Below, one piece after another: positions 22,829 through 50,586 of a stretch of 64,000 bases of DNA (position 1 is the stretch's first letter; every line of letters starts with the position of its first letter). The DNA is taken from IMG/VR virus record IMGVR_UViG_2671180612_000005, positions 6,888 to 70,887 of that record; one strand, 5' to 3'. Under the pieces are notes generated by a model that saw nothing but the letters and a program-made list of their open reading frames with translations, did not search any database and had not been told where the DNA came from. The translations under genes and the position numbers were made by a program. This stretch comes from a virus (lineage: Duplodnaviria > Caudoviricetes).

Positions 22829-22898
22829 GGATGCGGCCTTCCGGACGACGCGGATCTTCCGGCCGTCGACGGCGAGGTGCGGGACGGCGCCGACGATG

Positions 22899-24187: not shown

Positions 24188-25647
24188 GCCGTCCTCGTCC
24201 CGTCCAGCGTTCCCCTGAGGTCCTTCATCATCTTCAAGGACCGCTGCTCGGCCGCGATGCGCGTCTCGATCGAGGCGATCTCCGCGTCGAGGGCGACGAC
24301 CAGGGCGGGCGCCGCGGTCTTCGGCGAGGAGGCGGCCCGTCCGCGCACGAGAGACCGCTTCTTCTTGACCGCGGCGGTGGTGCGGCCGAGGTGCCCCGCG
24401 ATCTCCACGAGGGACTTCCCGGCCGCGTCGGCCGTCGAGAGGTATTTCAGGTCGGCGTCCGTCCACGGAGCGCCGAAGGGATTCTGTTCGGTGGTGTCGG
24501 CGGACATGGTCGTCTCCTGTTCGGCTTCGGTTTGGGTCTGCTGGACGACTTCGGGCTTGGCGTCCCGGATATCGTCCACCACGGGCGCCTGCTCCGGCAG
24601 GGCCTCGGGGACCTCGTGGACGATCTCGGGCGCGGACTGGGCAATCTCGTCCGCCGGCGTCGCGACGTCGGACGGGTAGAGAAGCTTCAGCGGCTCGGCA
24701 TCGAGGTCGCGGGGAGCCGGATACGGCATGTCGACGCCGTAGCGGCCTGACACGTAGGACCGAGTCGCGTTCGGGGTCCGGCCGTCCTTCGCGAGCATGG
24801 CATCGATCTGCGCGATGGTGAGGGGAACGATCCGCGAGATGCGCAGCGACGTCGCGCCCTCTGCGTGCAGCTCCAGGACCCGGCTCTTCGTCGCCATGGT
24901 CGAATAGCCGGTGCTGCGGTCCGAGATGGCATCCTGATGCCTCCGGCGGATCTTCGCGATCTCGCGGTCGACCTGCACGACGCCGCAGCCGAGGACCTTC
25001 GCGATCGTGCGCGAGTCCTTGCCATCGGCCCAGAGCTTCTCGATGCCGACCATCATGTCGACGGTCCACCCACCCTCCCCGGTGCGACCTGGATCCTCGG
25101 AAACGTTCGGAGCATCGGGACCGGCGGCGGCGCGAGCCTTCGCGATCTCGCGGACCTTCAGGCCCAGGTACGTCGCCCTGTTCTGGACGCTCGCCCTCTG
25201 CTGCCCGAGCCCGATCGCGATGTCGGCGACGGCATGCCCGGCCAGCATCCTGGTCCGGATCGTCTCGTCCTCCTGGGGCGTGAAGAAATGCCGGGCATCG
25301 ATGGACTTCCGGGCGTTGACGACGGTCCCGAGCGGGATCCTCGGCGTCTCGACCTCGAAGCCCGCCTGCTGCAGCACGACGGCCGCCTGATCCTTCGAAA
25401 CGCCGACGCGCTGGGCGATGCGGCTGAGACGGTACTTCTCGACGCGGTGCAGCTCGACGATGCGGTCGCGCTGGAACTGCGTCAGCTGCTGCGACGCGCC
25501 GAGGCGGGTCATACGGGTCTGCACGGCGCCGACGGAGACGCCGAACTGGTCGGCGACGACCGGACCCGGCGTCTTGAGGAGGGAATGGAGGCGGAGGGCT
25601 TCGTCCTCCTCCGCGGTCCACTGCTTGTAGCCTGCACGGACGCCCAT
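24184..25647 (-). CDS. Multi-HTH (Myb/GcrA-like repeat) DNA-binding protein
   Basis: Repeated WT.EED-type helices followed by IA..LG motifs. Confidence 0.7.
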   Translation of the reverse strand: MGVRAGYKQWTAEEDEALRLHSLLKTPGPVVADQFGVSVGAVQTRMTRLGASQQLTQFQRDRIVELHRVEKYRLSRIAQRVGVSKDQAAVVLQQAGFEVETPRIPLGTVVNARKSIDARHFFTPQEDETIRTRMLAGHAVADIAIGLGQQRASVQNRATYLGLKVREIAKARAAAGPDAPNVSEDPGRTGEGGWTVDMMVGIEKLWADGKDSRTIAKVLGCGVVQVDREIAKIRRRHQDAISDRSTGYSTMATKSRVLELHAEGATSLRISRIVPLTIAQIDAMLAKDGRTPNATRSYVSGRYGVDMPYPAPRDLDAEPLKLLYPSDVATPADEIAQSAPEIVHEVPEALPEQAPVVDDIRDAKPEVVQQTQTEAEQETTMSADTTEQNPFGAPWTDADLKYLSTADAAGKSLVEIAGHLGRTTAAVKKKRSLVRGRAASSPKTAAPALVVALDAEIASIETRIAAEQRSLKMMKDLRGTLDGTRTA

Positions 25648-31485: not shown

Positions 31486-31682
31486 TTTCTCGGCTCACTG
31501 GTGGCCGGCTGGTCAGGCCGGTTTGTAAAACGGGGTATCTCAGGACGCCCGATTCGCTCAGCATGCCGATTGTTGACGCGAGAGTCGATACCCCCTAGTA
31601 TTCCGCAGAGAATCGGGGGGTCTCACTGGCCTCCGGTCTCCGAAAGCCGCCCCCCGGATTGGTCTCCGGATCAGGGCGGCTT

Positions 31683-31919
31683 TCACATTTCGGGGTGTCG
31701 CCTCTCGTGCCGCGCCCGCGCCTTCGCGACGACGCGGATCTGGTGTTTTTCCGCCTTCAGGACGGCGAGCACGACCCGCCTGCCCCACCGTTCCTCCGCC
31801 GCCTCCCGGCCATGGCTCGCGATCAGAGACCGGACCTTCTCGGGCTTCGGGACGAAGGTCACCCTGTCGCTCCACAGGGACTCGTTGCCGTGCCAGGCGT
31901 GCAGGCTCGCATCCGACAT
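31683..31919 (-). CDS. Hypothetical protein
   Basis: GGAGG RBS, TGATG overlap. Confidence 0.55.
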   Translation of the reverse strand: MSDASLHAWHGNESLWSDRVTFVPKPEKVRSLIASHGREAAEERWGRRVVLAVLKAEKHQIRVVAKARARHERRHPEM

Positions 31920-34495: not shown

Positions 34496-34918
34496 TTAAG
34501 AAGCGAGACTCCGGCGGTGACGGTCGCGGGCGGTCCGGCGACGGTCGGCGAGGGTCACTGGCGGCTCCTGGACGCGTGCCCGGCAGACGACGTCCCAGTA
34601 CGTTTCCGCCTTGCCGGTCAGGTCCTGGTACCGCTTTGCGACGGACGGATGCATGTCCGCGAACTTCAGGCGGTCGGACAGTTTAAGGACGACGGGATCG
34701 ACCCAACGCTCGCGAGAAAGGGCTCCGGTGCGGCCGGCCTTCTCCATCGCCTCGAGTCCGGTCCCGATCTGCGAGACGAGGTATTCCCGCGAAACGACGA
34801 CCCCCTTCCGGGCCAGGTGCTGCAACAAATCCGCGACCGTAAGCCTTCCCGTCAGAACGTCTTGCTGGATCAGAGGGGACAAATCATGGATCACGTGCTC
34901 GATCAATTTCGCGCCCAC
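34496..34918 (-). CDS. Hypothetical protein (lower GC)
   Basis: 3' part of a long ORF; GTG start after the bidirectional promoter. Confidence 0.45.
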   Translation of the reverse strand: MGAKLIEHVIHDLSPLIQQDVLTGRLTVADLLQHLARKGVVVSREYLVSQIGTGLEAMEKAGRTGALSRERWVDPVVLKLSDRLKFADMHPSVAKRYQDLTGKAETYWDVVCRARVQEPPVTLADRRRTARDRHRRSLAS

Positions 34919-34934
34919 CTCGTAAACACTCCAG

Positions 34935-34984
34935 TTCGAGTTCGCCCTACGCGCATGTATACCCGTCGGCAGGGGGAACTCGAA
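34935..34984. promoter_or_regulatory. Bidirectional late promoter
   Basis: TTCGAG-N17-TATAC on both strands, centred on GTATAC. Confidence 0.7.
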
Positions 34985-34987
34985 ACG

Positions 34988-35464: not shown

Positions 35465-35491
35465 TCGCATTCGCATAGGGGGAGCGAAGAC

Positions 35492-36572: not shown

Positions 36573-36576
36573 GCGC

Positions 36577-36605
36577 TTCGAGATGGATCATCCGCTCGCT
36601 ACAAT
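36577..36605 (+). promoter_or_regulatory. Late promoter motif
   Basis: TTCGAG-N17-TACAAT. Confidence 0.7.
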
Positions 36606-36626
36606 GGCGTAACGGGGGATTTTACG

Positions 36627-38099
36627 ATGACCGAACTGAGCGGAGGGCTGTCCGCGGAGGACCTGGCGGCGGTTCTTGCCGATCCGGAGATGGACGTCTG
36701 CACGAAGGCGGCGATCCAGATGCAGTCCGACTTCCTGAAGAAGGCGCGGCCGAAGCAGATCATGCCGGGCGGCGACTGGGACGTCTGGGTCTTGAGATGC
36801 GGGCGCGGCTTCGGGAAGAACTTCTGCGGCAGCCACAACTTCGGCATCGCCGCCCTGAAGAACCCCGGGTCGCGCATGGCGGTGCTGTCGCCGACGGCCG
36901 CGACGCTCCGCCGAGACGCGTTCGAGGGCAAGGACGGTCTGGCGAAGGTGATCCCGGCATACGCCATCGCCGAACACCACAAGTCCTACAACGAGATCCA
37001 CCTCCACAACGGAACGATCCTGCAGGGCTTTCCGATGGAGAGCCCGGACCGTCTTCGCGGGCCCAGCTTCCATGCGGGATGGCTCGACGAAGTCTGCGCC
37101 GCCGGTGCCAAAGCGCAGGAAGCCTGGGACATGTACAACTTCTGTCTCCGCCTCGGCGAGAAGCCGTGGACGATGATCACGACGACGCCGAAGCCGATGC
37201 GCCTGATCCGCGACATCGAGGCCGACAAGTTCACGAAGCTGACGATCGGCACGACGCTCGAGAACCTCGCGAACCTGCCGCCGACGCAGCAGCGCCGCCT
37301 CCTGCGGTACATGAACACGCCGCTCGGCCGCCAGGAGATCTTCGCCGAGATCCTGGACGAGTCCGACCTCAAGAACCCGATCAAGAGGAAATGGTGGGCG
37401 CAATGGGACCAGCCCCGCGTTCCTCCGCCGGCGCACATCGTCGTTAGCTTCGACACCGCCTTCAAGTCGAAGAAGGAGTCGGATTCGACCGCCTGCACCG
37501 TCTGGGGCGCCCTGCGGGTGGGCGTGCGCCGAAAGGGCGTCATCCGTCCGGAATGGGTCACCCTCCTGCTCGATTCCTGGAAGAAGAAGTTGGATTTCCC
37601 GCACCTCAAGCGCGCCGCCTACCTCGAGCGCGAGAAGTGGATCGGGATGGCCGGCGAGGCATGCGAGGTCACGACGCTGATCGAGGACAAGGGCTCCGGA
37701 CAGAGCCTGATCCAGGAGCTGAACGCCGCCGGCGTGCCGTGCGTGCCGTACAATCCCGGCCACGACTCCAAGCTCATGCGCGCCCACGCCGTCAGCGATC
37801 TGTTCGCCGAGGGAGCCGTCTTCGCCCGCGTCTACGACCATCCGCAGGACGGACGGATCTTCGTGCCGACGGCCGACGAGGTGATCACGGAATGCGAGAA
37901 GTTCGGCGACGAGGGCGTGCCGTCGGACGACTACGTCGACTCGACGAGCCAGGCCCTGACGTTCCTGCGCAACGAGGGTTGGTTGGGCAAGGAGTCGGAC
38001 CGCGAGTTCCACCAGGCGATCTCGGCCGAGCCCCCCGAGGAGAAGGACGATAACGGCTGGGACGACGACGAGGACGAGACGGAGCCGCTCTACGCGTGA
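36627..38099 (+). CDS. terL: Terminase large subunit
   Basis: GRGFGK, LRGP..WLDE, TTTP, SFDTA, IEDKGSG, DDYVDS. Confidence 0.95.
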   Translation: MTELSGGLSAEDLAAVLADPEMDVCTKAAIQMQSDFLKKARPKQIMPGGDWDVWVLRCGRGFGKNFCGSHNFGIAALKNPGSRMAVLSPTAATLRRDAFEGKDGLAKVIPAYAIAEHHKSYNEIHLHNGTILQGFPMESPDRLRGPSFHAGWLDEVCAAGAKAQEAWDMYNFCLRLGEKPWTMITTTPKPMRLIRDIEADKFTKLTIGTTLENLANLPPTQQRRLLRYMNTPLGRQEIFAEILDESDLKNPIKRKWWAQWDQPRVPPPAHIVVSFDTAFKSKKESDSTACTVWGALRVGVRRKGVIRPEWVTLLLDSWKKKLDFPHLKRAAYLEREKWIGMAGEACEVTTLIEDKGSGQSLIQELNAAGVPCVPYNPGHDSKLMRAHAVSDLFAEGAVFARVYDHPQDGRIFVPTADEVITECEKFGDEGVPSDDYVDSTSQALTFLRNEGWLGKESDREFHQAISAEPPEEKDDNGWDDDEDETEPLYA

Positions 38100-38152
38100 T
38101 CGCCGTTGAGGTTCGAGTGATGAACTTGTAAAAGACCGTACGACGGGGGAGA

Positions 38153-40501
38153 ATGCACATGGGAAGCAAGGAGTTCGGCGAGTTCGCGCCGGTGGATCCG
38201 CTAGACATGTTCCGCGACATGGAGGAGGTCGAGCTCGAGGACCTCGACGCGGCGTCGTCCGACGCGGACGAGCCCGAGGACCACTTCGCGAACCTCGTTA
38301 CGACGCTCGACGTGGACGATCTGAAGAAGATCGCCTCCGAGCTCGTCGACCGCGTCGATACCGACATCGAGGAACGGGACAGGCACGACCGCTTCATGCT
38401 GAAGGGCATGGAAGCGATGGGCATCGATAGGGACGAAATCCGCACGGGTGCATTCGCCGGTTCGTCGACCGTACGACATCCCCTCCTCGCGCAGGCCTGC
38501 GTCGACTTCCAGTCCCGCATCACACGCGAGCTGCTGCCCGCCGGCGGCGCCGTCCGCGCCGTTCCGAGCGAGGGCTACGACGAGGCGTCCGGATCGCTTC
38601 GCCGCGCCGAGGTCTACGCCAACCGGCGCATCCTGTCGTCCGGCGGCTGCGGCTATTCGGAATCGCTCGAGCAGGCGTTCATCCGTCTTCCGCTGGCCGG
38701 CAGCGTCATCCGCAAGGTCCGTCAGGGTCCCGACGGGGCCGTGTCCGAGACGATCGCGACCGGAGATTTCGCTGTCCCGTATTCCGCGACGACGCTCCAG
38801 TCCTCGCCCCGGAACACGCACATCCTGCGCCTGCACAAGCACGAGGTGGACCTCAACTTCCGCAGCGGCCTGTGGAAGCGCTTCGATCTCGACGAGCGCG
38901 GCGACGAGAGTCGCCGTCCCGAGTCGCAGTCGAAGAAGCACGCCCAGCGCGTCACCGGACAGTCGAAGTCCAGCGAGGACGACGATCGCTACGTCTTCTA
39001 CGAGGTCCATTGCTGGTGGGCCGTCGAGGACGAGGAGGAGGAGCGCCCTTACGTCGTCGTGATCCATCCCGACACCGAGACCGTGTGCATGGTCCGGCGG
39101 AACTGGGATCCCGCCGACGGCGCGATGCAGCCGATCCAGCACTTCGTCCACTATCGCTACCTCCCGTGGGAGGGCTTCTGGGGCATCGGCCTCTTCCACC
39201 TCATCGGCGGCCTGTCGTCGGCCGCGACCGGCTCGCTGCGGGCCCTGATGGATTCGGCCGTCCTCCAGAACATGCCGACCGGTCTGGCCGACAAGAGCGC
39301 CGGCGTCACGAAGGGCGGCAAGCTGAAGCTCGAGCCGCTCGGCTTCACGAACGTCACGCTTCCGACCACCGGCGGCGACAGGGACATCCGCAAGCACTTC
39401 ATGCCCCTGCCCGTCGCCGGGCCGTCGGCGACGCTGTTCTCGCTCCTGCAGTTCATGGTGTCCGAGGGCAGCGAGTTCGCCTCCGTCGCGATCAAGGGCC
39501 TGGCGGACGCGTCCGAGCAGGCGCCGGTGGGAACCACGATGGCGCTCGTCGAGCAGGGCTCGATCGTGTTCGCTTCGATCCACCTGCGTCAGCATCGGAG
39601 CTTCGCGCAGGAACTCCGTCTGTTCCAGCGCGTGACCCGCGACTGGATGCCGGCGGAGGGCGACGACGGCGTCCAGAAGGAGGACTTCGACGACGTCCTG
39701 ATCCTCGTGACGGCCTCCGACCCGTCCACTTGGTCGTCGGTCCAGCGCGTGACCCAGGCCCAGGCCGTCGTCCAGATGGCCCAGCTCGCCAACTCTCTCG
39801 GCGTGAAGGTCGATCTGCGCTCGGCGTTCATCACCATGTCCAAGGCGCTCGGCGTCGAGGATCCGGAGGCCATGTTCCCCAAGGAGGAGCAGCCGCAGCC
39901 GCCCCCGCCGATGCAGCCCCAGGAGGAGTTCGCGGCCATTCTGCGCGGGCAGCCGACGCGGGCGTATCCGGGCCAGAACCACGATGCCCACAAGGCGTTC
40001 TACGAGCAGGTCCTGCAGGATCCGTCCTACGCCAAGGCGCTGGAGAAGGCCCTGCCGTCCGTCCTCGCCTGCCATGCCGACCACACGGCGCAGGGCGTCC
40101 TGGACGAGATCGCCCGCATCACGGGCCAGCAGCCGCCCGAGGTCGACCCGATGCTGTGGCAGTCCGCCATGGTCGCGGCCGAGGCGGCCGCCCGTCTCGC
40201 GCAGACCCGTCGCGCCTCCGATCCGGCCGTCGTCGCCGTGCAGGAGGACGCGAAGACGCGGATCGAGATCGAGAACCGCAAGCTGCAGCAGCGCGACACG
40301 CAGATCATCCAGACCGGCGAGCTCAAGTTCGCCGAGCTGGCGAGCCGCGAGCGCATCGCCGTGGCCGAGATCGAGGCGAAGGCGGCGAACCTCGTAACCG
40401 AGGCGTCGATGCAGCGCGAGGAGGCCGAGCGACGTTCGGCCGACGCCCGCGAGAAGGCGGCGTTCGACGCCGCGAACAAGGCACCGGAGGTCGTCCTTTG
40501 A
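38153..40501 (+). CDS. Portal protein
   Basis: HPLLAQACVDFQS, LPLAGS..RK, FWGIGL.HLIGGL, APVGTT.AL. Confidence 0.9.
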   Translation: MHMGSKEFGEFAPVDPLDMFRDMEEVELEDLDAASSDADEPEDHFANLVTTLDVDDLKKIASELVDRVDTDIEERDRHDRFMLKGMEAMGIDRDEIRTGAFAGSSTVRHPLLAQACVDFQSRITRELLPAGGAVRAVPSEGYDEASGSLRRAEVYANRRILSSGGCGYSESLEQAFIRLPLAGSVIRKVRQGPDGAVSETIATGDFAVPYSATTLQSSPRNTHILRLHKHEVDLNFRSGLWKRFDLDERGDESRRPESQSKKHAQRVTGQSKSSEDDDRYVFYEVHCWWAVEDEEEERPYVVVIHPDTETVCMVRRNWDPADGAMQPIQHFVHYRYLPWEGFWGIGLFHLIGGLSSAATGSLRALMDSAVLQNMPTGLADKSAGVTKGGKLKLEPLGFTNVTLPTTGGDRDIRKHFMPLPVAGPSATLFSLLQFMVSEGSEFASVAIKGLADASEQAPVGTTMALVEQGSIVFASIHLRQHRSFAQELRLFQRVTRDWMPAEGDDGVQKEDFDDVLILVTASDPSTWSSVQRVTQAQAVVQMAQLANSLGVKVDLRSAFITMSKALGVEDPEAMFPKEEQPQPPPPMQPQEEFAAILRGQPTRAYPGQNHDAHKAFYEQVLQDPSYAKALEKALPSVLACHADHTAQGVLDEIARITGQQPPEVDPMLWQSAMVAAEAAARLAQTRRASDPAVVAVQEDAKTRIEIENRKLQQRDTQIIQTGELKFAELASRERIAVAEIEAKAANLVTEASMQREEAERRSADAREKAAFDAANKAPEVVL

Positions 40502-40731
40502 GCGACGCACGCCGTCTCATGGAGCGTGTCCAGGAACTCCTCCTGGAACGCAAGGCCTCGATCGCCGCCGGGGTTCTCGACGGCTCCCTGCCCGACCATT
40601 CCCAGTATCTGGCGCAGTGCGCCGAGATCCGGGCGCTCGACACAGTGTGGGTCAGCGTCCTCGGCTCCTACGAGGCCATGACGGCCGAGGGAGAGATCGA
40701 AGAAGAACCCGAAGAAGGAGAAGACAGTTGA
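40498..40731 (+). CDS. Small head-module protein
   Basis: TTG start overlapping portal stop. Confidence 0.6.
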   Translation: MSDARRLMERVQELLLERKASIAAGVLDGSLPDHSQYLAQCAEIRALDTVWVSVLGSYEAMTAEGEIEEEPEEGEDS

Positions 40732-41138
40732 ACACCCAGTCCCCCGTCCTCGCCGTCGGCGGTCCCGTCTCGGCCCTGCCGAAGACCGATCCGCGTTTCC
40801 CGCCCGTCTCCGACGTGCCCATCCCGCTCGGCCATCGCCTCGTCGTCCAGCACGCCAAGGTCTCGCAGACCTACGCAGGCACGTCGATCATCAAGCACGT
40901 CGCGCAGGTCGAGGCCGAGGCTTACCAGTGCACCGAGGCGAAGGTTCTGAAGGTCGGCGACGACGCCTGGCGCAACCGCGAGACCGGGGTCGAATGGGTG
41001 GGCGGCGCCAAGCTGCGCCCCGGGGACGTCGTGCTCATTCCGATGACGAAAGGGCTCCGCTTCACGCGCGACGACTGCACCCTCCAGATGATCGAGGACA
41101 TCGTGCCGCTCGCCCTACTGGAGCGGCCGTCGGCCTGA
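40728..41138 (+). CDS. GroES-like co-chaperonin
   Basis: PLGHRLVV...II...AKVLKVGDDA...PGDVV...IED; start uncertain. Confidence 0.8.
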   Translation: MNTQSPVLAVGGPVSALPKTDPRFPPVSDVPIPLGHRLVVQHAKVSQTYAGTSIIKHVAQVEAEAYQCTEAKVLKVGDDAWRNRETGVEWVGGAKLRPGDVVLIPMTKGLRFTRDDCTLQMIEDIVPLALLERPSA

Positions 41139-41157
41139 TCGACTGCGTCGGACGAAG

Positions 41158-41183
41158 AAAAGCGGCCTCCGGGCCGCTTTTTT
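41158..41183 (+). terminator. Intrinsic terminator (possibly bidirectional)
   Basis: AAAAGCGGCC-TCCG-GGCCGCTTTTTT. Confidence 0.85.
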
Positions 41184-41195
41184 CGTTCGGGGGTA

Positions 41196-41225
41196 TTCGA
41201 GTTGGACGTGGCGACATCGTAAATA
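41196..41225 (+). promoter_or_regulatory. Late promoter motif
   Basis: TTCGAG-N18-TAAATA. Confidence 0.55.
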
Positions 41226-41266
41226 GTCAGGAGACGGATGATCGGATGATACCGGGGAGCTTACGC

Positions 41267-41503
41267 ATGAGCGACGGAACCGAGACGAAGGCGCCGAGGA
41301 AGGCCAAGGCGCCGGCGAAACCGAAGGACGAGGCCGCGGCGGTCGAGGCCGAGGCCGTCGAGGACGACTACGTCGCGCCGCGTTCCCGGGCCCGCATCGC
41401 TCGCGCCGACGCGTCGGTGCAGGCCATCCGCAAGAAGATGTCGATCTCCGACCAGGGCGGCGAGGGCCTCGTCCTGACGCCAGAGCTGAAGCTCACGATG
41501 TGA
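41267..41503 (+). CDS. Small hypothetical protein
   Basis: GGGGAG RBS; MSDGTETKAPRK... Confidence 0.65.
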   Translation: MSDGTETKAPRKAKAPAKPKDEAAAVEAEAVEDDYVAPRSRARIARADASVQAIRKKMSISDQGGEGLVLTPELKLTM

Positions 41504-41563
41504 TCCGGACCGCGGGCCGCACGACCGGATAACGGGGCCCGCGATTTTTTTCGACGACGCCGC

Positions 41564-41593
41564 TTCGAGATGGACGGGGCGGCGTCGTACACT
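41564..41593 (+). promoter_or_regulatory. Late promoter motif
   Basis: TTCGAG-N18-TACACT; 26-bp identity with 43208-43233. Confidence 0.7.
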
Positions 41594-41666
41594 TCCGTCA
41601 TCGAAGGGATCGGGGGATCCCGCAGGCGCAGCGAGCGCCGGACAGTTCGAGCCGGGGGATCGATCC

Positions 41667-42182
41667 ATGCCGCAGTCCAAGGGCCTCAGGGCCGTCCGCC
41701 ACACGTCGGGCTACATCCGCACGAGCGAGGTGAAGGGCGGCATCGCGTCCGGCTACAACACCGACATCTTCCTCGGCGACCCGCTGAAGATCGCCGCCGA
41801 CGGCACGTACGTCCGCTCGGACGGCGCCGTCGTGGACGGCATCTTCATGGGCGTCCACCTCGTCGACTCGCGCAACGAGTACCGCGTCGAGAAGAGCTGG
41901 GTCGCCGGCACCGTCACGACCGACGTGAAGCTCCTCGTCGCGACCGAGACCTCGGGTCTCGAATGCGAGATCTCCACCGACGCCGCCGCGCCTTCCAACA
42001 TCGTGGGCAAGGCGTGCAATCTCACGATGACCGCCGGATCGCACCTCAACGGTTCGTCCGCCGTCGTCCTCAACGTCGCCTCGGCAGCTACCCCCGGCAC
42101 CGCCGTCCGCGTCAAGGGATTCTCGAAGAAGGTCGGCAACGTGCCGGGCGACGTCGCGATCCTCGTCGTCGAAATCCTGTAA
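41667..42182 (+). CDS. Capsid-associated (decoration-like) protein
   Basis: GLRAVR..IASGYNTDIFLGD; directly upstream of MCP. Confidence 0.7.
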   Translation: MPQSKGLRAVRHTSGYIRTSEVKGGIASGYNTDIFLGDPLKIAADGTYVRSDGAVVDGIFMGVHLVDSRNEYRVEKSWVAGTVTTDVKLLVATETSGLECEISTDAAAPSNIVGKACNLTMTAGSHLNGSSAVVLNVASAATPGTAVRVKGFSKKVGNVPGDVAILVVEIL

Positions 42183-42206
42183 TCCGGTCGAGGGGGAAAC
42201 CGACCC

Positions 42207-43133
42207 ATGTCCAACATCATCACGACCGCCAACTTCCGGCGCAGGGTCCTGCCGATCCTCGACCGCTCGTTCGACGACCACACGGCCAAGGGGCCTGAAG
42301 AGTGGAAGAGCTGGTACGACGTCGAGGACGGCGCCGCGGCCGCCTTCGAGGAGGAGTCCGGCCTGACCGGCTTCGGTCTTCCGACCGAGCTCGGCGAAGG
42401 CGAAGCGATCACCTACGACATCGCCAAGGACGGATTCGTCACGCGCTTCCTCTGGTCCGAGTTCGGCTCCGGCTTCAAGATCACCAAGCGGATGATCGAG
42501 GACGGCCAGGGCGAGAGCCTCACGACCAAGCTATCGAAGATGCTCGGCGTCTCGTTCCGCGAGGCCCGCGAGCTCATCCACGCCTACCTGCTCAACTCCG
42601 CCTTCACCCGCGTCCGCCCGGACTTCGACAAGAAGCCGATCATCGCGACGGACCACCCGATGGCGGGCTTCGGCATGGGCGGGCAGGTCTGGTCGAACCG
42701 GCTTCCCGACGCGCAGTTCTCCGAGGCGGCGCTCGAGGACGCGGATATCTTCATCTCGAAGGCGACCGACCAGCGCGGCCTGAAGATCTCGCTGAAGGCC
42801 AAGGACATCGTGATCCCGTCGGAGCTCAAGTACGACGCGGTCCGGATCCTGCGATCCAACGGCCAGGTCAACACGCCGAACAACACGGCGAACGCGCTCA
42901 AGATCGAGGGCACGTACGGCACGGACGCGAAGGTCCTACGGTACCTGACCTCCTCGACCGCCTGGTTCATCATGACCGATGCGGACCGTGGTTTCATCCA
43001 CAAGACCCGCAACGCCCTCGAGCGCGGCATGCACGGCGACTTCGAGACCGGCAACACGGCCTATAAGGCGACCGAGCGCTACGGCGTGAACATCGGCGAC
43101 GTCCACAAGGTCTACGGCTCCGTCGGAGCCTGA
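42207..43133 (+). CDS. Major capsid protein
   Basis: AFEE..LTGFG..EG..I.YD, GF.IT..IED, YLT...AWF, DFETGN..YKATERY. Confidence 0.9.
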   Translation: MSNIITTANFRRRVLPILDRSFDDHTAKGPEEWKSWYDVEDGAAAAFEEESGLTGFGLPTELGEGEAITYDIAKDGFVTRFLWSEFGSGFKITKRMIEDGQGESLTTKLSKMLGVSFREARELIHAYLLNSAFTRVRPDFDKKPIIATDHPMAGFGMGGQVWSNRLPDAQFSEAALEDADIFISKATDQRGLKISLKAKDIVIPSELKYDAVRILRSNGQVNTPNNTANALKIEGTYGTDAKVLRYLTSSTAWFIMTDADRGFIHKTRNALERGMHGDFETGNTAYKATERYGVNIGDVHKVYGSVGA

Positions 43134-43169
43134 GCTCGGCGCGGTTGGGGGACCGCGCAGGGAGGAAGG

Positions 43170-43205
43170 AAGGGCCGGTGCCGCGAGGCCCCGGCCTTTT
43201 TCTTT
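43170..43205 (+). terminator. Intrinsic terminator after MCP
   Basis: GGCCGG...CCGGCC followed by TTTTTCTTT. Confidence 0.75.
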
Positions 43206-43213
43206 GCCGCCGC

Positions 43214-43242
43214 TTCGAGATGGACGGGGCGGCACGTAATTT
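43214..43242 (+). promoter_or_regulatory. Late promoter motif
   Basis: TTCGAG-N17-TAATTT. Confidence 0.7.
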
Positions 43243-43262
43243 CGCGTCGGGGGATCAACGAC

Positions 43263-44759
43263 ATGGCGGACGTGGAAGTCCAGGACCTGCCGCAGACGCA
43301 GCTCGACGGTTTCGCCCTCGTCGAGATCGGCGGAGCTCTGTACCGCCGGTCGACCAACGGATTCGGCGTCGATCCCGAGCTCGTCGCGACCGTCGAGGAC
43401 CTGTCGGCCGACGTGGTGCAGCTCTTCGACGACGTCGCGGACGTGCGCGAGGAGCTGGAGGGCAAGGCCGACGCGGGAGAGACCGCGGTCACCTTCGCGC
43501 AGCTCGGGACCGACCTCGCCGACGTCGCCGGCGACGTGACGCAGCTCTTCGACGACGTGGCCCAGATCCGGGAGGACCTGGAGGGCAAGGCCGACGACGC
43601 TGACGTCGATGCGCTGGCCGCATCGGTCGCCGACCATGAAACCCGCATCGTCACGCTCGAAGCCGCGGCGAACGTCGCCGCACGGCTGAAGGGCGCGAAC
43701 GTACGCACGGTCGGCCCGGGCGGAGACTGGACGACGCTCTCGGCCGCGATCGCCGCGCTCCGCGTCGCTAACCGGGATCCGGACGCCCGCGTCACCGTCA
43801 ACATCGCCGCCGGCATCTACGTCGAGAACCTGACATTCCAGCCCGGCGAGGACTGGAGCTGGGTGGACTTCTTCGGCCCCGCCGGGGTCGAAGTCCAGCC
43901 CTCCGCCGTCGCCGTCTCGGGCAATTCGAGGGACTATCGCCACGCCTGGACCGTGCCCAACGGCGCCGTCTTCTCCGTCGGCGACCAGGTGGACGTCAGG
44001 CTGATCGTGGCGCAGTCGAACAGCGCCGAGTACCAGAACGTAGGCAACTGCCTCATCACGGCGGTCGCCGGCAACGTCGTCACCCTGCGCGTGCGGACGC
44101 TGACCAGCTTCATCCCCGCGAACCCGGCTAACTATTTGCTGATGAAGGTCCCGGTCCAGGTCCGGACGTCGCAGACGATGGAGCTCAAGGGCGTCCGGTC
44201 GCCGACCTTCTTCAACGTCGGATTCCGTCCGAACGGCTCGCCGACGGCGAACGCCGCCTTCGGCGTCATCCGCGTCTCGTCGGGTGGCGTCCTGCGCACG
44301 ATCCGGCGCGAGGTCACGACCGACAACCCGCGCTGCGACCTTTTCGTCTGCCACGGCGGGCCCGGCATCACCGTCGACCGGTACGGCATGCTCCGCGGCT
44401 CATTCTCGAGCTGCAACAACGACGCTTCTGGCATCATCGCGGTCCAGTCGGAGCTCCAGCTCGGGCGCGTCCAGACGAACGCGAACGGCGACGGCTGCTA
44501 CGTCATCTTCTCGAAGCTGAACCAGTACGGCAACGCCGGCTCTCCTCAGGAGGCCCTGTTCTGCGGGAACGGCAACTCCGGTCTCATCGGGATCCGGCAG
44601 GCCGACGGTCACGTCTACGGCGGCGTCGCTCTCGGCAACCAGAACGACGTCTTAGTGGACGTCAACGCCCGTCTGACCGTCGGCAGCTTCATCGCGAGCG
44701 TCTACTCGCCGCCGGCGAACACACTGAACAACAAGAATTCGTTCATCGCGACGTATTGA
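43263..44759 (+). CDS. Tail spike/fibre-like protein with 41-aa duplicated stalk and Asn/Gly-rich beta-helix-like C-terminus
   Basis: QLFDDVA..RE.LEGKAD x2; TVGPGGDW.TL..AI; AGIY.E. Confidence 0.7.
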   Translation: MADVEVQDLPQTQLDGFALVEIGGALYRRSTNGFGVDPELVATVEDLSADVVQLFDDVADVREELEGKADAGETAVTFAQLGTDLADVAGDVTQLFDDVAQIREDLEGKADDADVDALAASVADHETRIVTLEAAANVAARLKGANVRTVGPGGDWTTLSAAIAALRVANRDPDARVTVNIAAGIYVENLTFQPGEDWSWVDFFGPAGVEVQPSAVAVSGNSRDYRHAWTVPNGAVFSVGDQVDVRLIVAQSNSAEYQNVGNCLITAVAGNVVTLRVRTLTSFIPANPANYLLMKVPVQVRTSQTMELKGVRSPTFFNVGFRPNGSPTANAAFGVIRVSSGGVLRTIRREVTTDNPRCDLFVCHGGPGITVDRYGMLRGSFSSCNNDASGIIAVQSELQLGRVQTNANGDGCYVIFSKLNQYGNAGSPQEALFCGNGNSGLIGIRQADGHVYGGVALGNQNDVLVDVNARLTVGSFIASVYSPPANTLNNKNSFIATY

Positions 44760-44760
44760 G

Positions 44761-44988
44761 GTGGAAGCCGTGCTTTTCCTGATCCACGCCGAGCGGCCAG
44801 GCCTCGTCCTCTCGACGCATGCCGACAGCCAGCTTCCCGATCTGCTCGCGCTGCCGGCGGACACGTACACCGTCTGCCGCGTCGTCGATCCGATTCCCGA
44901 GCCGCCCGTCGCCTTCCCTCCCTCGACGGCGCTGCGACCGGTGCCGGCCGTCTACGAGGTCGTCGAACGTACGGAGGCGTCCGCATGA
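44761..44988 (+). CDS. Small hypothetical protein
   Basis: GTG start, coupled to next gene. Confidence 0.45.
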   Translation: MEAVLFLIHAERPGLVLSTHADSQLPDLLALPADTYTVCRVVDPIPEPPVAFPPSTALRPVPAVYEVVERTEASA

Positions 44989-45656
44989 GCACCCGCCTCG
45001 ACTACGACGAGCTCTTCGAAGAGGCGTCCGGCCGCATCGGCGGCGAGGCCGTGGCAGGCTTCACCGCCCGCGAAGGCCGCCTCGCGCTCCGGCTTCTGTT
45101 CTCGGACTGGGCGAACCGCGGCTGTCAGATGTGGCAGCTCGACGAGATCGTCGTGCCGTTGGCCGCGGCGACCACCCTTCCCGCCGACACGACCGACGTC
45201 GTCGAGGCGTTCGTCCGCATCGACGGTCGGGACCGTACCATTCAGCGGATCGGCCTGACGTCCTGGGTCGACGTCGAGGAGAAGAGCGCCGCAGGCCGCC
45301 CGTGCTCGTACCTCGTCGAGCGGCGCCGCGACGCGCCCGTCCTCCGCATCTCTCCCCTGCCCGACTTCGCAGGCGAGCTGCACGTCTGGCGGATCCGCGA
45401 GGCGACCGCAGTGTCGTCGATGTCGGACTTGGTCGACGTCCCGGAGCGCTTCCTCGCCTCCGCCGCGGCGGGGCTGGCGTACCAGCTCGGCCTGAAGCGG
45501 CTCGCGAAGCAGGCGGCCGAGAAGAACGAGAACCTCCGCTTCCTCATCCAGACGCTCAAGGCCGAGTACGAGCAGCTGCTCCTGAACGCGCTCGAAGCCG
45601 ACCGCGAAACGGCGACGATCCGGTTCGCGGTCGACATGGGAGGCTACTTTGACTGA
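44985..45656 (+). CDS. Head-tail adaptor-like virion protein
   Basis: L.LLFSDWANRG..WQ, GRP, P.PD, DVPERF...GLAY.L. Confidence 0.75.
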   Translation: MSTRLDYDELFEEASGRIGGEAVAGFTAREGRLALRLLFSDWANRGCQMWQLDEIVVPLAAATTLPADTTDVVEAFVRIDGRDRTIQRIGLTSWVDVEEKSAAGRPCSYLVERRRDAPVLRISPLPDFAGELHVWRIREATAVSSMSDLVDVPERFLASAAAGLAYQLGLKRLAKQAAEKNENLRFLIQTLKAEYEQLLLNALEADRETATIRFAVDMGGYFD

Positions 45657-46269
45657 CTTCAACGAGCTGGCCCTCGCGATCCCGCGCTGGCTGAACTCCG
45701 ACGAGGACGAGCTCGTCGACGAACTCCCGTCCATCATCCGGTCGGCCGAGGAGCGCCTGAGCCGCGATCTGCAGCACCGTGCGCTCTATGCCGAAGCGAC
45801 CGGCACGATCTACGCCGGCCAGTCTGCGCTCTCCATCCCGACCGATCTGATCGGCGTCCGCCGACTCGCGATCGTCGACGCGGGCGAGACCGTCGTGCTG
45901 CGCCGTCGGACGATATCCTTCCTCGACGAGTTCGCGCCGCGAATCTCGCTTGTCGGTCGGCCGAAGTTCTACGCGGTCCGGTCCACGAACTCCTGGCGCG
46001 TCGCCCGCACGCCCGACGCGGACTATCCGTTCGAGCTTCTCTACAAGCGTCGGCTGGTCGGTCTGTCGCCTCAGAACCCGACGAACTGGCTGTCGGAGAA
46101 CGCCTACGACGCCCTCCTCCACGCCGCCTGCGCACGGGCCGCGTCCTTCCTGCACGACGACGAGAAGGCGGCGACGAAGGCCCTGCACGAGGACGAGTAC
46201 GGCCGCTTCGTCTCCGCGCTGAACGCCGAGTCCGAGGAGGACGAGTACCAGCCGGGAGAAGCCGCATGA
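45649..46269 (+). CDS. Phage adaptor protein
   Basis: EL..AI..WL...I..AEERL.RDL, G.PKFYA, TNWL..NA.DALL. Confidence 0.75.
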   Translation: MTDFNELALAIPRWLNSDEDELVDELPSIIRSAEERLSRDLQHRALYAEATGTIYAGQSALSIPTDLIGVRRLAIVDAGETVVLRRRTISFLDEFAPRISLVGRPKFYAVRSTNSWRVARTPDADYPFELLYKRRLVGLSPQNPTNWLSENAYDALLHAACARAASFLHDDEKAATKALHEDEYGRFVSALNAESEEDEYQPGEAA

Positions 46270-46874
46270 GCACCGCGACGCAGCGCAACCGCCTCGAGCT
46301 CATGGACTACGGATCGAACCTGGACACCTGGGGCGACAAGCTCAACCGGAACTTCCGCAATATCGACGCGGCCTTGGACGGCAGCCTCGCGGTCGACCTG
46401 ACGGCCGGCGGACACGTTCTGGTCGCCTCCGACTTCGTCGAGGACGAGGCGCGCCGGCGCGTGCTCCGGACGACCGGCGGCGGCAAGCTGACGATTCCCG
46501 CCGTGGAGAAGGTCTACTACGTCCTGGCGCAGGATCCCTTCAGCGCGACCGACGGCACGACGACGGTGCAGGTTCCCGCCGGCTTCTCCGTCCTCCTGGC
46601 GCAGCCCCTGTCGGTGCACTCGTCGGCGAAGAACACGAGCGTCGCGGTCTTTGCGTATCCGGCGGCGATCGGGGCTTCGCACCTGTCCGGCCTGGTGCTC
46701 GTCGCCGGCACGGTCCCGGCCGTCATCCCGCCGGGCGGCTACGTCGACGTCAAGGCCACGGCCGCCGCGCAGGTCGGCAACGTCCGCTTCGCCGCCGGCG
46801 CGTCGGCGCGCCTCGTCGGATCGGCGTCGGGCATCGTCGTCATGAGCGAGACCGCAGGGGTGACCCGTGTCTGA
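46266..46874 (+). CDS. Tail-associated virion protein
   Basis: RLELM..G.N..TWG...N.N...ID.A. Confidence 0.65.
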   Translation: MSTATQRNRLELMDYGSNLDTWGDKLNRNFRNIDAALDGSLAVDLTAGGHVLVASDFVEDEARRRVLRTTGGGKLTIPAVEKVYYVLAQDPFSATDGTTTVQVPAGFSVLLAQPLSVHSSAKNTSVAVFAYPAAIGASHLSGLVLVAGTVPAVIPPGGYVDVKATAAAQVGNVRFAAGASARLVGSASGIVVMSETAGVTRV

Positions 46875-47568
46875 GGTCCGTGACGCCACGCCCCTGAATA
46901 GGTTCGAGCTGACCCGCACCGGCGAGGGCGTCGGGATCTGGGCGGCGGTCGGCGTCAATGCCGTGCTGTCCTCGATCGACGAGGCGATGGACGGCGCCGC
47001 CACCATCGCGTCCGGCAGCATCGTCGCCCGCACCGGTTCGTCCGACGACCTGCGCCGGCGCGTCTGGCACGTGGTAGGCGATGCGCGGACGATCTTCGTG
47101 CCGGAGTTCGCCGGCGTCCGTTTCGTCTCATGCGACGCGGCCGGCGTCGTCCTGCGCACATCGCGCAGCTTCGTCGAGCTGCCGGCCGGCCTGTCCACGG
47201 TGCACATGCTCGACGGGACGATCCGGCGCGTCGTCGATCGCGATCCCATCGCCGTGGACGTGCCGACGGCGAATCCAGTGAAGCGCCGGACGGTCTCGCT
47301 GATGTCGACGCTTGCGGACGCGGTGCTCCCGGCGCCGACGCCGGGCGACTGGATCGTCGTCTCGGCCGGGCCGAACGGCTCGACGATCACCGGTCCCATC
47401 CAGAGCCGGATCCAGCGCCGCGGCCTGGCGACGCTCGGCCGGACGCTGACCACCGGAGGCCGCCGCATCGTCGCGGCATTCTGGGACGGGGACACGACCT
47501 CCGTCCGCATCGGCGCCGGTCGGACGGCGCGCTTCGTCGCCTACGAGGGGACCTGGATCCAGTGCTGA
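46867..47568 (+). CDS. Tail-associated protein, paralogous to the preceding gene
   Basis: RFEL...G...W....N.....IDEA.DG. Confidence 0.6.
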   Translation: MSEVRDATPLNRFELTRTGEGVGIWAAVGVNAVLSSIDEAMDGAATIASGSIVARTGSSDDLRRRVWHVVGDARTIFVPEFAGVRFVSCDAAGVVLRTSRSFVELPAGLSTVHMLDGTIRRVVDRDPIAVDVPTANPVKRRTVSLMSTLADAVLPAPTPGDWIVVSAGPNGSTITGPIQSRIQRRGLATLGRTLTTGGRRIVAAFWDGDTTSVRIGAGRTARFVAYEGTWIQC

Positions 47569-49517
47569 GACACTTCAAGACGTTCCCGGGCGTCGTCACG
47601 GATGACACGCCGTATGCCAGCCAAGGCTTCGCCACCGCCTCCAACCATATCAGGTGGGTGGAGGGGAAGGCGGAGATGCGCGGCGGCTACGTCGACGCCT
47701 GCCCGGGCTTCCTCGTCCCCGGTAAGACCCGGTCGCAGAGGCAGTGGACCACCGTCCGCGGCCAGGCCCTCACGGCGCTCGGCTCGACGGAAGGGATTTT
47801 CGTCGTCGTCGAGAAGCGCGTCCACGACGTCACTCCCACCCTCGCGAGCTTCGACGGCACGATCCAGGGATCCAGGATCTTCGCCCCCGGCCACGGCGTC
47901 CGTCCGGGTCAGCTCGTCCACGTCCGCGGCGGCGGCGTCGGCTCGACCCTCGTCCTGCCGGCCGATCCCTTCCGCACTGCGGCCGGCCTGTCCCAGGTCC
48001 TCGTCTCGGCCGGCGGTCACGGCCTGCCGGACAACACGCTCCTGAAGATCGCCGGCGCGACGCCCGTCGACGGCGAGAACGTCAACGGCCTGCGCACGGT
48101 CCTCGCGGCCGGACCCGACACGCTCGTCCTCCACCTCGACGAGGTCGCGGCCTCGACCGCCTCCGCCGGCGGGACGCCGACGGTCGACGCCTATCGGGCC
48201 TGCCGCGTCGTCTCGGTCGAGGCCGATGCCTTCATCGTCGATACCGTCGGCAACGGCGACGTGACCGTCGTGCCGACACTCCTCCCGGGCCGCGAGGACG
48301 GCGTCCTTCCGGGCGGCTACGGCGTCGGCGGCTACGGCGTCGGCCCTTTCGGCGCGAACATAAGCTACGACACGCGGGCGGCGTTCCTGCCCCGTGTATG
48401 GAGCCTCGACACGTTCGGCGAGACGCTCGTCGCGGCGCCGATCGGCGGGCCGCTCTTCCGGTGGGATCCCAATCCCTCGAAGCGCGCCGTCGTCGTGCCG
48501 AATGCCCCGGCGCATATCGACTGGCTCTGCGTCACCGCGGAACGGGTGCTCATGGCGTTCGGGTGCACGCACCTCGACGGCGTCTACGACCCGTTGGCGG
48601 TGCGTTGGTGCAACGTGGGCGACTTGGACATGTGGACGCCGTCGAGCGCGAACAATGCTGGCGACGACCGCTTCGGCCGCGGAAGCTACATCGTCGCGGG
48701 CTTCGCGACCGATGCCGGCGTCGTCGTGTGGACGGACACGGCCGTCTACGGCGGGAGCGCGACCGGCGATCCGTCGCAGTTCTACCGGTTCGATACGATC
48801 TCGGACAACTGCGGCCTGGTCTCGCCGAACGCCGTCGTCGTGCGCGCCGACGGCGAGTGCTGGTGGCTGGGTCCGGGCAACGTCGTCTACGGCATGGCAG
48901 GAGGCAAGCCCCGAGAGGTCGACTGCCCCGTCACGTCGTGGCTGACCGTCGATCCGGTTCAGGCCTACAAGGCCTTCGCGTGCACCGACTCCAGGTTCTC
49001 AGCCGTTACCTTCTACGCCGGCGACCGGTACATCCGCTTGGACACGAAGGAGGCCGCGGCGAATCCCCGGCTCGGCTGGAGCGTCGGAACGCACGACATG
49101 ACGACGTCCGGCGACCTGTCGGTGATGGGATATGCCATGGCGGTTCGGGCGGACGGTAAAGTCGTGGCGCAGGACGTCGGGACATCGTTCGACGGCGAGC
49201 CAATCACGGCCTTCGTCCGCTTCGCGCCGTCGGAACTCGCCGACGAGAACGGCGACGGGGAGTTCTGCGTGAACCTGAACCGGGTGCACCTGGACTGCAG
49301 GCTGACCGGCGCGATCAAAGTGCGGGTCATCTCGAAGCGCTGGCCCGAGCTTCCGGACCGCGTGAAGGGCCCGTGGATCTTGACACCGGAGAAGCTGAGG
49401 TTCGATCCGAGGGTTCAGGGCCGCCAGTTCGCGCTCGAGGTCTTCTCGGACGGAACGGCCGACGCCTGGCGCCTCGGGCTGCCGAGGGTCGACACGTCGC
49501 AGGGGCCGCGTCGATGA
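47562..49517 (+). CDS. Tail nozzle / stabilisation protein
   Basis: PGVV.D.T.Y, WSLDTFGE.L, DPLAVRW, VWTDTA.Y, R..GRQ, WRLG..R.D. Confidence 0.75.
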   Translation: MLRHFKTFPGVVTDDTPYASQGFATASNHIRWVEGKAEMRGGYVDACPGFLVPGKTRSQRQWTTVRGQALTALGSTEGIFVVVEKRVHDVTPTLASFDGTIQGSRIFAPGHGVRPGQLVHVRGGGVGSTLVLPADPFRTAAGLSQVLVSAGGHGLPDNTLLKIAGATPVDGENVNGLRTVLAAGPDTLVLHLDEVAASTASAGGTPTVDAYRACRVVSVEADAFIVDTVGNGDVTVVPTLLPGREDGVLPGGYGVGGYGVGPFGANISYDTRAAFLPRVWSLDTFGETLVAAPIGGPLFRWDPNPSKRAVVVPNAPAHIDWLCVTAERVLMAFGCTHLDGVYDPLAVRWCNVGDLDMWTPSSANNAGDDRFGRGSYIVAGFATDAGVVVWTDTAVYGGSATGDPSQFYRFDTISDNCGLVSPNAVVVRADGECWWLGPGNVVYGMAGGKPREVDCPVTSWLTVDPVQAYKAFACTDSRFSAVTFYAGDRYIRLDTKEAAANPRLGWSVGTHDMTTSGDLSVMGYAMAVRADGKVVAQDVGTSFDGEPITAFVRFAPSELADENGDGEFCVNLNRVHLDCRLTGAIKVRVISKRWPELPDRVKGPWILTPEKLRFDPRVQGRQFALEVFSDGTADAWRLGLPRVDTSQGPRR

Positions 49518-49744
49518 GGATCCCCAACTCGCCAAGGACCGGGATCGCGGCGCTGGATCGGTTTCTCTCGGACCTGGTCGCGGCGCTGCGGAAGCCCGAG
49601 TCGGAGAGCTACCTGCCGACTGTCCCGTTCGAGGCCGTGGACAGCGTCGGCGTCGGCCGGTCGGGATATCTCTTTCAATGTCCGGATCACCCGGATGGGT
49701 ACCGCTTGGGCGTGACGACGGGTACGGAGGTCCGTTGGATCTGA
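49514..49744 (+). CDS. Small virion-associated protein
   Basis: ATGA overlap. Confidence 0.55.
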   Translation: MRIPNSPRTGIAALDRFLSDLVAALRKPESESYLPTVPFEAVDSVGVGRSGYLFQCPDHPDGYRLGVTTGTEVRWI

Positions 49745-49803
49745 GCCTGTGGCTTGCCGGCCGGTAGGTTCTCGCACAACGTGTGTGTAAGGAGGACCTG
49801 ACC

Positions 49804-50535
49804 TTGGCGACAACGAATCAGCAGCAGCAACGCGAGATCCTGAAGCTGGCCATCGGCCAGCTGGACACCATGCTGACGCTCGCAACGACGATGCGGATCC
49901 AGCAGTACCTACTCCGCAAGAATGCTTCCGGCTTCCGCGACTTCGAGGAGGAAGTCGCGCACCTCGACGACCAGATCGCGATTCACGGAACAGGCGTTCT
50001 TGCGGACCGTCAGAACATTCTCAGGCGTCCGAACCGATGGGACGACGACAACTTCATGCCGGAGGACGTACCGCTGGGTTCGCATGAACTCGGGGCATAC
50101 ATCGACAGTTTTCCTCTTGATGCTGCAGGTTCCTCGTACGTCTTCACACTGCTGGAGGTTTTCGGGAACGATGTCGCCGCCATCGTCAGTCCCGGCTCGA
50201 TCTCGCGCAACAAGGCTTGGCACGAGGACGTGAAGGGTTTCGCCGATCTCCGTGATCCGAACCAAGTCACAACGGCGCAAGCCGCATTCGGGAAGCACTT
50301 CGGAATTGCTGGTCCCGACGTGCCGGAGATCGCGGCGCGTCGCATGGTCGAGCTCAAACGGATCCGAAACGAGTTCGCGCATGATGGCTCGGGGCGAGTG
50401 GATTTCGAGGGCTTCCTCAAGGATGTCGTGGCCATCGTTTGCCACATTGTCTTCCTGACTACGGACGAGGATCGCCTGTCGTCGTATCCTTGGGAGGACC
50501 ACATGAAACAGTTCGATCCTCAGACGAAAGTCTGA
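49804..50535 (+). CDS. HEPN-domain protein (moron)
   Basis: RNEFAH RxxxxH motif; lower GC; AGGAGG RBS before TTG. Confidence 0.7.
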   Translation: MATTNQQQQREILKLAIGQLDTMLTLATTMRIQQYLLRKNASGFRDFEEEVAHLDDQIAIHGTGVLADRQNILRRPNRWDDDNFMPEDVPLGSHELGAYIDSFPLDAAGSSYVFTLLEVFGNDVAAIVSPGSISRNKAWHEDVKGFADLRDPNQVTTAQAAFGKHFGIAGPDVPEIAARRMVELKRIRNEFAHDGSGRVDFEGFLKDVVAIVCHIVFLTTDEDRLSSYPWEDHMKQFDPQTKV

Positions 50536-50537
50536 CC

Positions 50538-50566
50538 TTCGAGTTAGACCTTTCGGTTGGTAGTTT
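50538..50566 (+). promoter_or_regulatory. Late promoter motif
   Basis: TTCGAG-N17-TAGTTT. Confidence 0.65.
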
Positions 50567-50586
50567 CTCCCCATTGGGGGGTGCCG

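Follow-up and report, generated by a model that had tools for sequence, protein, structure and literature searches.

Probable late promoters with an asymmetric box in place of the -35 element in a temperate alphaproteobacterial prophage

Introduction

How are the late genes of a temperate phage switched on when the phage carries no visible sigma factor gene? The question is raised by IMG/VR provirus record IMGVR_UViG_2671180612_000005 (70,887 bases, 88% complete by CheckV), of which bases 6888-70887, a stretch of 64,000 nucleotides with a G+C content of 67%, are here called the window. The gaps around its late genes carry a recurrent two-block motif, a box that begins TTCGAG followed by an AT-rich hexamer. 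The seven sites at which it occurs are probably late promoters in which a -10 element of the sigma-70 type is kept and the -35 element is replaced by an asymmetric box for a phage factor. This promoter reading is well supported by sequence features and by one comparative footprint, and host sigma-70 acting together with a phage-encoded reader of the box would be the most likely mechanism. The source is a temperate podovirus-like prophage of a high-GC alphaproteobacterium, with a tyrosine-integrase gene at the left end of the record. A gene map drawn from the G+C content of third codon positions (GC3) and from family scans divides it into three blocks, an early operon, a lysis cassette and a late block (Table 1).

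Results

A two-block motif ahead of the late genes

The first-pass annotation of this DNA had described a phage-specific late motif in five gaps and in two divergent arms. Exact copies of TTCGAGWTRGA were recovered five times in the window, all on the + strand (36577, 41196, 41564, 43214 and 50538) and with the spacers and -10 hexamers described, against an expectation of 0.10 (mean of 100 shuffles, the largest giving 1). The two arms, at 34935 (+) and 34984 (-), are present as the variant boxes TTCGAGTTCGC and TTCGAGTTCCC, which are followed after N17 by TATACC and TATACA, respectively, and these two hexamers overlap in a GTATAC centre. When the pattern was relaxed to TTCGAGWT-N15-16-TANNNH, exactly seven matches were obtained on both strands of the window (128 kb; 0.10 expected), namely the five exact sites and the two inverted arms in the 69-base gap 34919-34987, and none elsewhere. 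All seven are intergenic by the GC3 gene map, each facing the next gene, and the proposition that the motif might be equally common in coding DNA was tested and proved false for the full pattern. The hexamer TTCGAG alone occurs 80 times in the window, with 14 copies intergenic, and is common in coding DNA because TTC-GAG encodes Phe-Glu. Three intragenic copies of the 11-mer with one mismatch were found (42750 on the - strand, 51708 and 51810), none with a -10 hexamer behind it. Seven gaps of at least 50 bases are present between 35800 and 57500, and five of them hold a copy of the motif. An 8-mer count over the nominally intergenic set was dominated by GC-rich stretches in which gene calling had failed. 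In the gap between terL and the portal gene (38112-38134), a lone TTCGAG is followed after 11 bases by TAAAAG; this was not counted because of its wrong spacing, and is possibly a decayed copy.

The geometry of the sites is that of sigma-70 promoters, as had been proposed. The hexamers are separated by 17 or 18 bases at all seven sites, within the 17 +/- 1 bases of sigma-70 promoters, which at the five exact copies leaves 12-13 bases between the end of the box and the -10. The form TAnnnT, with a probability of about 0.004 per position in DNA of 67% GC, is seen in four of the seven hexamers (TACAAT, TACACT, TAATTT and TAGTTT), the others being TAAATA, TATACC and TATACA. The non-canonical character of the -35 was likewise borne out, as TTCGAG shares only two of six letters with TTGACA and lacks the G at position 3, and a sigma-70 consensus scan caught just one of the sites, in a shifted register. 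The TTGACA early promoter with which the motif had been contrasted could not be confirmed, a single consensus-like site being found in 18800-35100 (31573, +) against 0.9 by chance. The box is not palindromic, and would fit a monomeric reader or one with tandem helix-turn-helix (HTH) units. The 12-13 bases between the blocks vary among the sites, the exception being CGGGGCGGC, common to 41564 and 43214. Recognition by a single-subunit polymerase would call for a contiguous block of about 20 bases, and here it is precisely the bases between the two blocks that differ. Two of the features expected of a class II activator-dependent promoter, a site overlapping the -35 and a usable -10, are visible in the sequence.

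Position of the sites relative to genes and terminators

At four sites the start codon stands 49, 49, 50 and 53 bases from the box, and a GGGGGA ribosome site separates the two, which would give a leader of about 14 bases; the other three sites have distances of 66, 71 and 103 bases. Several copies had been said to follow terminators directly, and this holds for three of the five (41196, 41564 and 43214), at each of which the terminator T-run ends 12 bases 5' of the box (41177-41195, 41545-41563 and 43197-43213). The T-runs would lie at about -47 to -53 from the inferred start, and may thus occupy the location of an UP-element.

The closeness of the conserved block to start codons, in 5' regions, could also be taken to mean that it acts in RNA, serving processing, anti-termination or the control of translation in transcripts that read through. 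At 41554-41587 an inverted repeat of 10 bp, ACGACGCCGC / GCGGCGTCGT, encloses the 41564 box in its loop, and the 50538 box belongs to a hairpin of seven pairs. However, no comparable stem is found at sites other than 41564, and no structure is common to all seven; the second block, rich in AT, is a hexamer at the spacing of a promoter; and no Rfam family was matched anywhere in the window. As three of the sites stand just 3' of strong terminators, little read-through RNA would include them. A role in RNA is therefore considered very improbable.

Table 1. Predicted features of the window (window coordinates; promoter and candidate assignments are putative)
Feature	Coordinates	Strand	Details
Rightward arm of putative divergent late promoter	34935..34963	+	TTCGAGTTCGC, 12-base spacer, TATACC; membrane-protein gene start codon 34988
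Leftward arm of putative divergent late promoter	34956..34984	-	TTCGAGTTCCC, spacer, TATACA; heads 140-aa gene (34918..34496) and lysis cassette
Putative late promoter before terL	36577..36605	+	TTCGAGATGGA, N17, TACAAT; ATG 36627
Putative late promoter before 78-aa open reading frame (ORF) 41267..41503	41196..41225	+	TTCGAGTTGGA, N18, TAAATA
Putative late promoter before 171-aa protein and major capsid gene	41564..41593	+	TTCGAGATGGA, N18, TACACT
Putative late promoter before 498-aa protein and adaptor/tail genes	43214..43242	+	TTCGAGATGGA, N17, TAATTT
Putative late promoter before 107-, 1283- and 916-aa ejection-type proteins	50538..50566	+	TTCGAGTTAGA, N17, TAGTTT; GTG 50587
Intrinsic terminator after portal block	41158..41183	+	GC hairpin and T6
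Intrinsic terminator after ORF 41267..41503	41510..41551	+	
Intrinsic terminator after capsid gene	43172..43201	+	
Candidate box reader, 487-aa multi-HTH protein	24184..25647	-	Myb/GcrA-DBD-like and sigma region-4-like HTH units
77-aa single-HTH protein	23954..24187	-	65% identical in SK2
GcrA-like gene, weaker candidate	22893..23510	-	frame lost after residue ~205
Early operon	31410 to 19225	-	RecA-like protein, several HTH proteins, 487-aa multi-HTH protein, GcrA-like gene
Lysis cassette	34918 to 31683	-	DUF7940 protein, endolysin, Rz1-like LysC protein
140-aa basic protein gene, first behind leftward arm	34496..34918	-	74% identical in SK2
Terminator-like hairpin at end of lysis operon	31643..31685	-	-33.4 kcal/mol, z -3.09
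Late block	34988 to 57513	+	membrane protein, terL, SU10-type portal, major capsid, SU10-type adaptors, large ejection-type proteins
aa, amino acids; DBD, DNA-binding domain; SK2, Aureimonas sp. SK2

Conservation in a related prophage

A relative of the phage was found in Aureimonas sp. SK2 through the multi-HTH protein of the early operon, which has a 46% identical homologue there. Around this homologue the whole early and lysis region is present with its gene order kept, at 45-90% protein identity, and the tail and ejection genes are found at 68-93% identity on a separate contig. At the homologue of the 50538 site, the box is identical at 11 of 11 positions and the -10 at six of six, while only six of the 12 spacer positions are identical; the gene upstream is unrelated and the alignment starts at the box. 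In the divergent pair, the rightward arm TTCGAGTTCGCCC-N8-TGTATAC is identical in the two genomes. The SK2 prophage is decaying (L115:1401-2158; L115 near 4584; L090 near 735). Transposase genes abut the tail genes in place of the head module, the homologue of a 651-aa tail protein is split in two frames, and the 140-aa gene has an in-frame TAG. The head genes of SK2 were not found when the capsid or portal protein of the window was used as query, and terL gave just a 32% match on another contig.

Among sequencing runs, none of RNA was listed for this DNA. In one DNA sequencing run (X1), contigs of a relative about 90% identical cover the region, and one of them spans the 43214 site. A further capsid, P0002, is 82% identical and is encoded on a 5.7-kb contig. 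Two bases are inserted in the -10 of the 43214 site in run X1, so that TAATTT would become TAAAAT at the same distance from the box; what was read is the insertion and not the letters of the box. No close relative was obtained by megablast of 34400-50600 against phage records, with the capsid against viral contigs and species genomes, with an alignment of the capsid pair against metagenome contigs, with the multi-HTH protein against phage records and viral contigs, with a tail-protein alignment against metagenome and viral contigs, or with exact DNA patterns in viral contigs. A 16-letter two-block pattern matched at least 119 loci in viral contigs, with a single match in each (80 of them listed), and these were treated as chance. 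In a stricter first look, the multi-HTH protein was present in one of 401 genomes of the family to which SK2 belongs.

The motif is not a host signal

The reader of the box could also be envisaged as a host protein, whether an alternative sigma or a global regulator, in which case the phage would have adopted a class of host promoter; the -10 is indeed host-like. The strict pattern gave 22 matches in 20 of 151 genomes of the SK2 family, with at most two per genome, against 55 for a reversed control (counted from the table). The 4.6-Mb genome of SK2 itself has 23 exact 11-mers, against nine for the reversed control, but 22 of the 23 are not the phage site and 21 of those 22 are without a -10; TAnnnT stands behind only two of the 23, one being the phage site, and most copies fall where several frames are open. 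Two matches to the relaxed two-block pattern were obtained in the SK2 genome, and the homologue of the 50538 site accounts for one of them. With the sites confined to late genes and no regulon in 151 related host genomes, the proposed specificity of the motif for phage late genes stands, and a host reader appears most unlikely.

Candidate readers of the box

The impression that no sigma factor gene is visible also held. In six frames of the 70.9-kb provirus record, Sigma70_r2 (PF04542) gave no match at E<=10, the control being positive in 11 of 14 genomes, although a sigma too divergent for Pfam could escape such a search. A sigma of the phage's own, highly divergent or split as in T4 gp55/gp33 and SPO1 gp33/gp34, would read both blocks, and host sigma-70 would not be involved. 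A dedicated sigma is expected to use a long invariant first block at a fixed spacing, as found here. Conserved early proteins of 139, 129, 186, 346 and 410 aa are without a family, and small HTH proteins with a faint likeness to sigma region 4 lie side by side. In contrast, however, no protein combines region-2-like and region-4-like parts, and the -10 has the TAnnnT form of primary sigmas, unlike the forms of known phage or extracytoplasmic function (ECF) sigmas. Taken with the blank search for region 2, these points make a phage sigma improbable. A T7-type polymerase (PF00940) was not found in six frames of the record, where the control was blank too, so that this result is uninformative.

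Three neighbouring early genes encode HTH units that resemble Myb proteins or the DNA-binding domain of GcrA (GcrA-DBD). The 77-aa protein has one such unit, the 487-aa multi-HTH protein four to six and the GcrA-like protein two. The multi-HTH protein matches Sigma70_r4_2 just over the cut-off of the model (E 5.5e-6) and has a weak match to the GcrA DNA-binding domain. The GcrA-like protein matches PF07750 over cut-off (43.4 bits summed) and PDB entry 5YIU at E 1e-5; its recognition helix is almost that of Caulobacter GcrA, and the TRNA(I/V)IG stretch is kept. The gene, however, departs from its coding frame past ..KLVCG and so misses the conserved C-terminal end (22487-23510, -). About 170 further codons, rich in Arg and Pro, follow in frame 0, with the GC3 signal moving to the frame that holds ORF 22487..22828. 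In SK2 the homologue (233 aa) is intact, continuing with ..YCETDAALAY.. and having the usual C-terminal end, and the frame loss in the window reflects a frameshift, the swap of a module or an error of assembly. GANTC is absent within -80..+120 of the six + strand sites, against a window average of 2.4 per kb.

An activator of this kind, either GcrA-like or the multi-HTH protein, had been suggested to redirect host sigma-70. The GcrA-like half of that suggestion is weakened, since the lack of GANTC and the lost 3' end place the multi-HTH protein above it, and the multi-HTH protein stays as a candidate only. From its domain content, the multi-HTH protein may tentatively be put forward as the box reader; another early HTH protein is possible at slightly longer chances, and the GcrA-like protein would be an unlikely reader.

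Points against the promoter reading, and an operator alternative

Several observations weigh against the reading of the seven sites as late promoters served by a phage reader. Two of the -10 hexamers have C or A as their last letter instead of T, and another reads TAAATA. In SK2 the leftward arm is found in a drifted form, TTTCAGTTCC (TTTCAG), and the footprint amounts to two sites in one genome pair, of which the sole usable relative is a degraded remnant. No Mor/C, Ogr/Delta, Q, MotA/AsiA, RinA-type or GafA/DUF6456 family was found among the scanned ORFs (scans of 53, 38, 18 and 15 proteins against Pfam, together with PHROGs and NCBIfam). The match of the multi-HTH protein to region 4.2 of an ECF-sigma model (E 6.2e-6) is below the curated cut-off, and its structure model is poor (mean pLDDT, the predicted local distance difference test score, 50.3). 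Finally, the motif is missing from 80 of 80 loci of distant relatives that have just the capsid in common with the phage (31-39% identity); these use other signals, and we therefore do not generalise beyond this lineage.

The divergent arms bear on a further alternative, in which the box is an operator and a phage repressor holds constitutive promoters without a -35 off in the lysogen. The box overlaps the -35, a usual location for operators, and the inverted copies at 34935/34984 resemble an operator pair beside a small basic protein gene (34496..34918). Single, non-palindromic copies such as those at the five other sites would, however, be unusual for repressor dimers, and promoters with neither a -35 nor a TGn extended -10 would be weak when unaided; in SK2, moreover, one arm has drifted while the other is exact. 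Repression through the box is thus judged unlikely.

Signals in distant relatives of the capsid

The 24-sequence capsid alignment was too diverse for a genome scan; on viral contigs it led to 80 distant loci, all of them without the motif. In one capsid locus (L074), a consensus sigma-70 promoter, TTGACT-N17-TACATT, follows the capsid terminator. In two others, L032 (1583, 6055, 10010) and L041 (1025, 8611, 9105), repeats of the form TGCAT(A/T)AGTA..ATAGGAAGA stand just 3' of terminator-like hairpins and are reminiscent of T7-type polymerase promoters. As some of these relatives have signals of their own after capsid terminators, an arrangement of terminator followed by restart would be common to the group, with a type of promoter that is specific to each lineage.

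Other features of the provirus

The 140-aa protein behind the leftward arm is conserved to an unusual degree in SK2 (74% identity) but has no family in Pfam, PHROGs or NCBIfam scans, and an Atlas search returned nothing at >=0.9. A second intergenic motif, GTAAAANNGCCAACGAAC, occurs at 22473-22490 (-) and 26069-26086 (-), 13 and 32 bases 5' of early-gene start codons; it is kept at the equivalent place in the SK2 relative (L090:14343-14360) and may be an early or middle control site. A gap of 571 bases in the early operon (29607-30177) holds no convincing ORF, Rfam match or tRNA. Accessory genes lie within the prophage at 10768-20031 and 58890-63937. Their products are UmuD/UmuC-like, GIY-YIG and PIN_12 proteins, a metallophosphatase-STAND nucleoside triphosphatase protein that is 90% identical in SK2, a protein in which a Tad2-like anti-Thoeris domain is recognised, two metallophosphatases and an AAA ATPase. 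Synteny with SK2 is seen for the right-hand set (58890-63937).

Discussion

A model for late transcription

We propose that the first block is an asymmetric phage-specific box lying at about -35 to -25, with the core TTCGAGWT extended to TTCGAGWTRGA at the five structural-gene copies, and that the second block, 12-13 bases on, is a -10 of the sigma-70 type (TAnnnT). Host core polymerase with the host primary sigma would melt the -10, while a phage DNA-binding protein made from the early leftward operon would read the box instead of the normal -35 contact, acting like a class II activator or as a surrogate for sigma region 4. As the reader would be needed in place of the -35, the late genes would be silent until it is present. 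The divergent pair in 34919-34987 would serve the lysis cassette with its leftward member and the packaging genes with its rightward one, and the other copies would restart transcription after terminators, giving units for terL to portal, the small ORF, scaffold to capsid, the tail and the ejection proteins.

In a more specific and rather doubtful version of this proposal, the neighbouring genes with GcrA-DBD/Myb-like units (the 77-aa, 487-aa multi-HTH and GcrA-like genes) would encode a phage-made cofactor of sigma-70, a region-4-like unit of which would read the 11-base box at the -35 as a monomer and so redirect the host holoenzyme to the late genes.

Comparison with known systems

In geometry, the middle promoters of T4 are the closest parallel. 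These combine a MotA box with a sigma-70 -10 and are used through sigma appropriation by MotA/AsiA. As in the sites described here, an asymmetric box near -30 replaces the -35 at about 12 bases from a normal -10, and a monomeric phage reader with the host sigma kept, known from T4, is what is proposed for the present phage. In contrast to T4, the sequence of the box is different, no MotA/AsiA family was seen among the ORFs scanned, the phage is temperate and alphaproteobacterial, and the genes served are late and not middle genes. The promoters of Mu Mor/C, P2 Ogr/P4 Delta and lambda cII also have a usable -10 and a poor -35, with the activator site at or just upstream of the -35. On those promoters the activator is a dimer or tetramer bound to a dyad or repeated site, whereas the sites here are single and asymmetric, and none of these families was found among the scanned ORFs. 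In kind, the seven sites would resemble phage promoters that depend on an activator and have a box where the -35 would be.

In biology, GcrA or GafA of alphaproteobacteria may be the closest. In PMC9976885, Caulobacter GcrA is described as a sigma-70 cofactor, a monomer that binds a methylated GANTC box and holds domain 2 of sigma-70, its box, YGAKTCG, being located either around -20, within the spacer, or 3' of the start. The likeness is that of an alphaproteobacterial activator beside the core promoter, and the phage encodes a PF07750 protein and further GcrA-DBD-like units. Unlike the GcrA box, however, the box here lies at -35..-25 with no GANTC in -80..+120, and the 3' end of the GcrA-like gene is missing in the window. 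The activator of the Rhodobacter gene transfer agent, GafA, is presented in PMC9638019 as a phage-derived protein with sigma-like and other HTH domains that acts through host polymerase and binds near the -10/-35 of promoters for late structural genes; its homologues are said there to carry DUF6456 and to contact the omega subunit. In contrast, no DUF6456 match was found among the proteins scanned here.

Implications

The sites yield a clean transcription map, with seven putative promoters, four terminators and six or seven late units, for a group of little-known temperate alphaproteobacterial phages, and the short invariant box could be used to fish out its reader. If the version with a phage-made sigma-70 cofactor is true, the phage would have a switch like sigma appropriation outside the T4 group, and this would be, to our knowledge and with no literature search aimed at the point, the first function known for the GcrA-like genes of alphaproteobacterial phages. 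Otherwise, the sites would represent an ordinary if tidy case of phage-specific late promoters. If the reader is indeed a GcrA-DBD-like protein, it would explain why phages of this bacterial class carry such genes.

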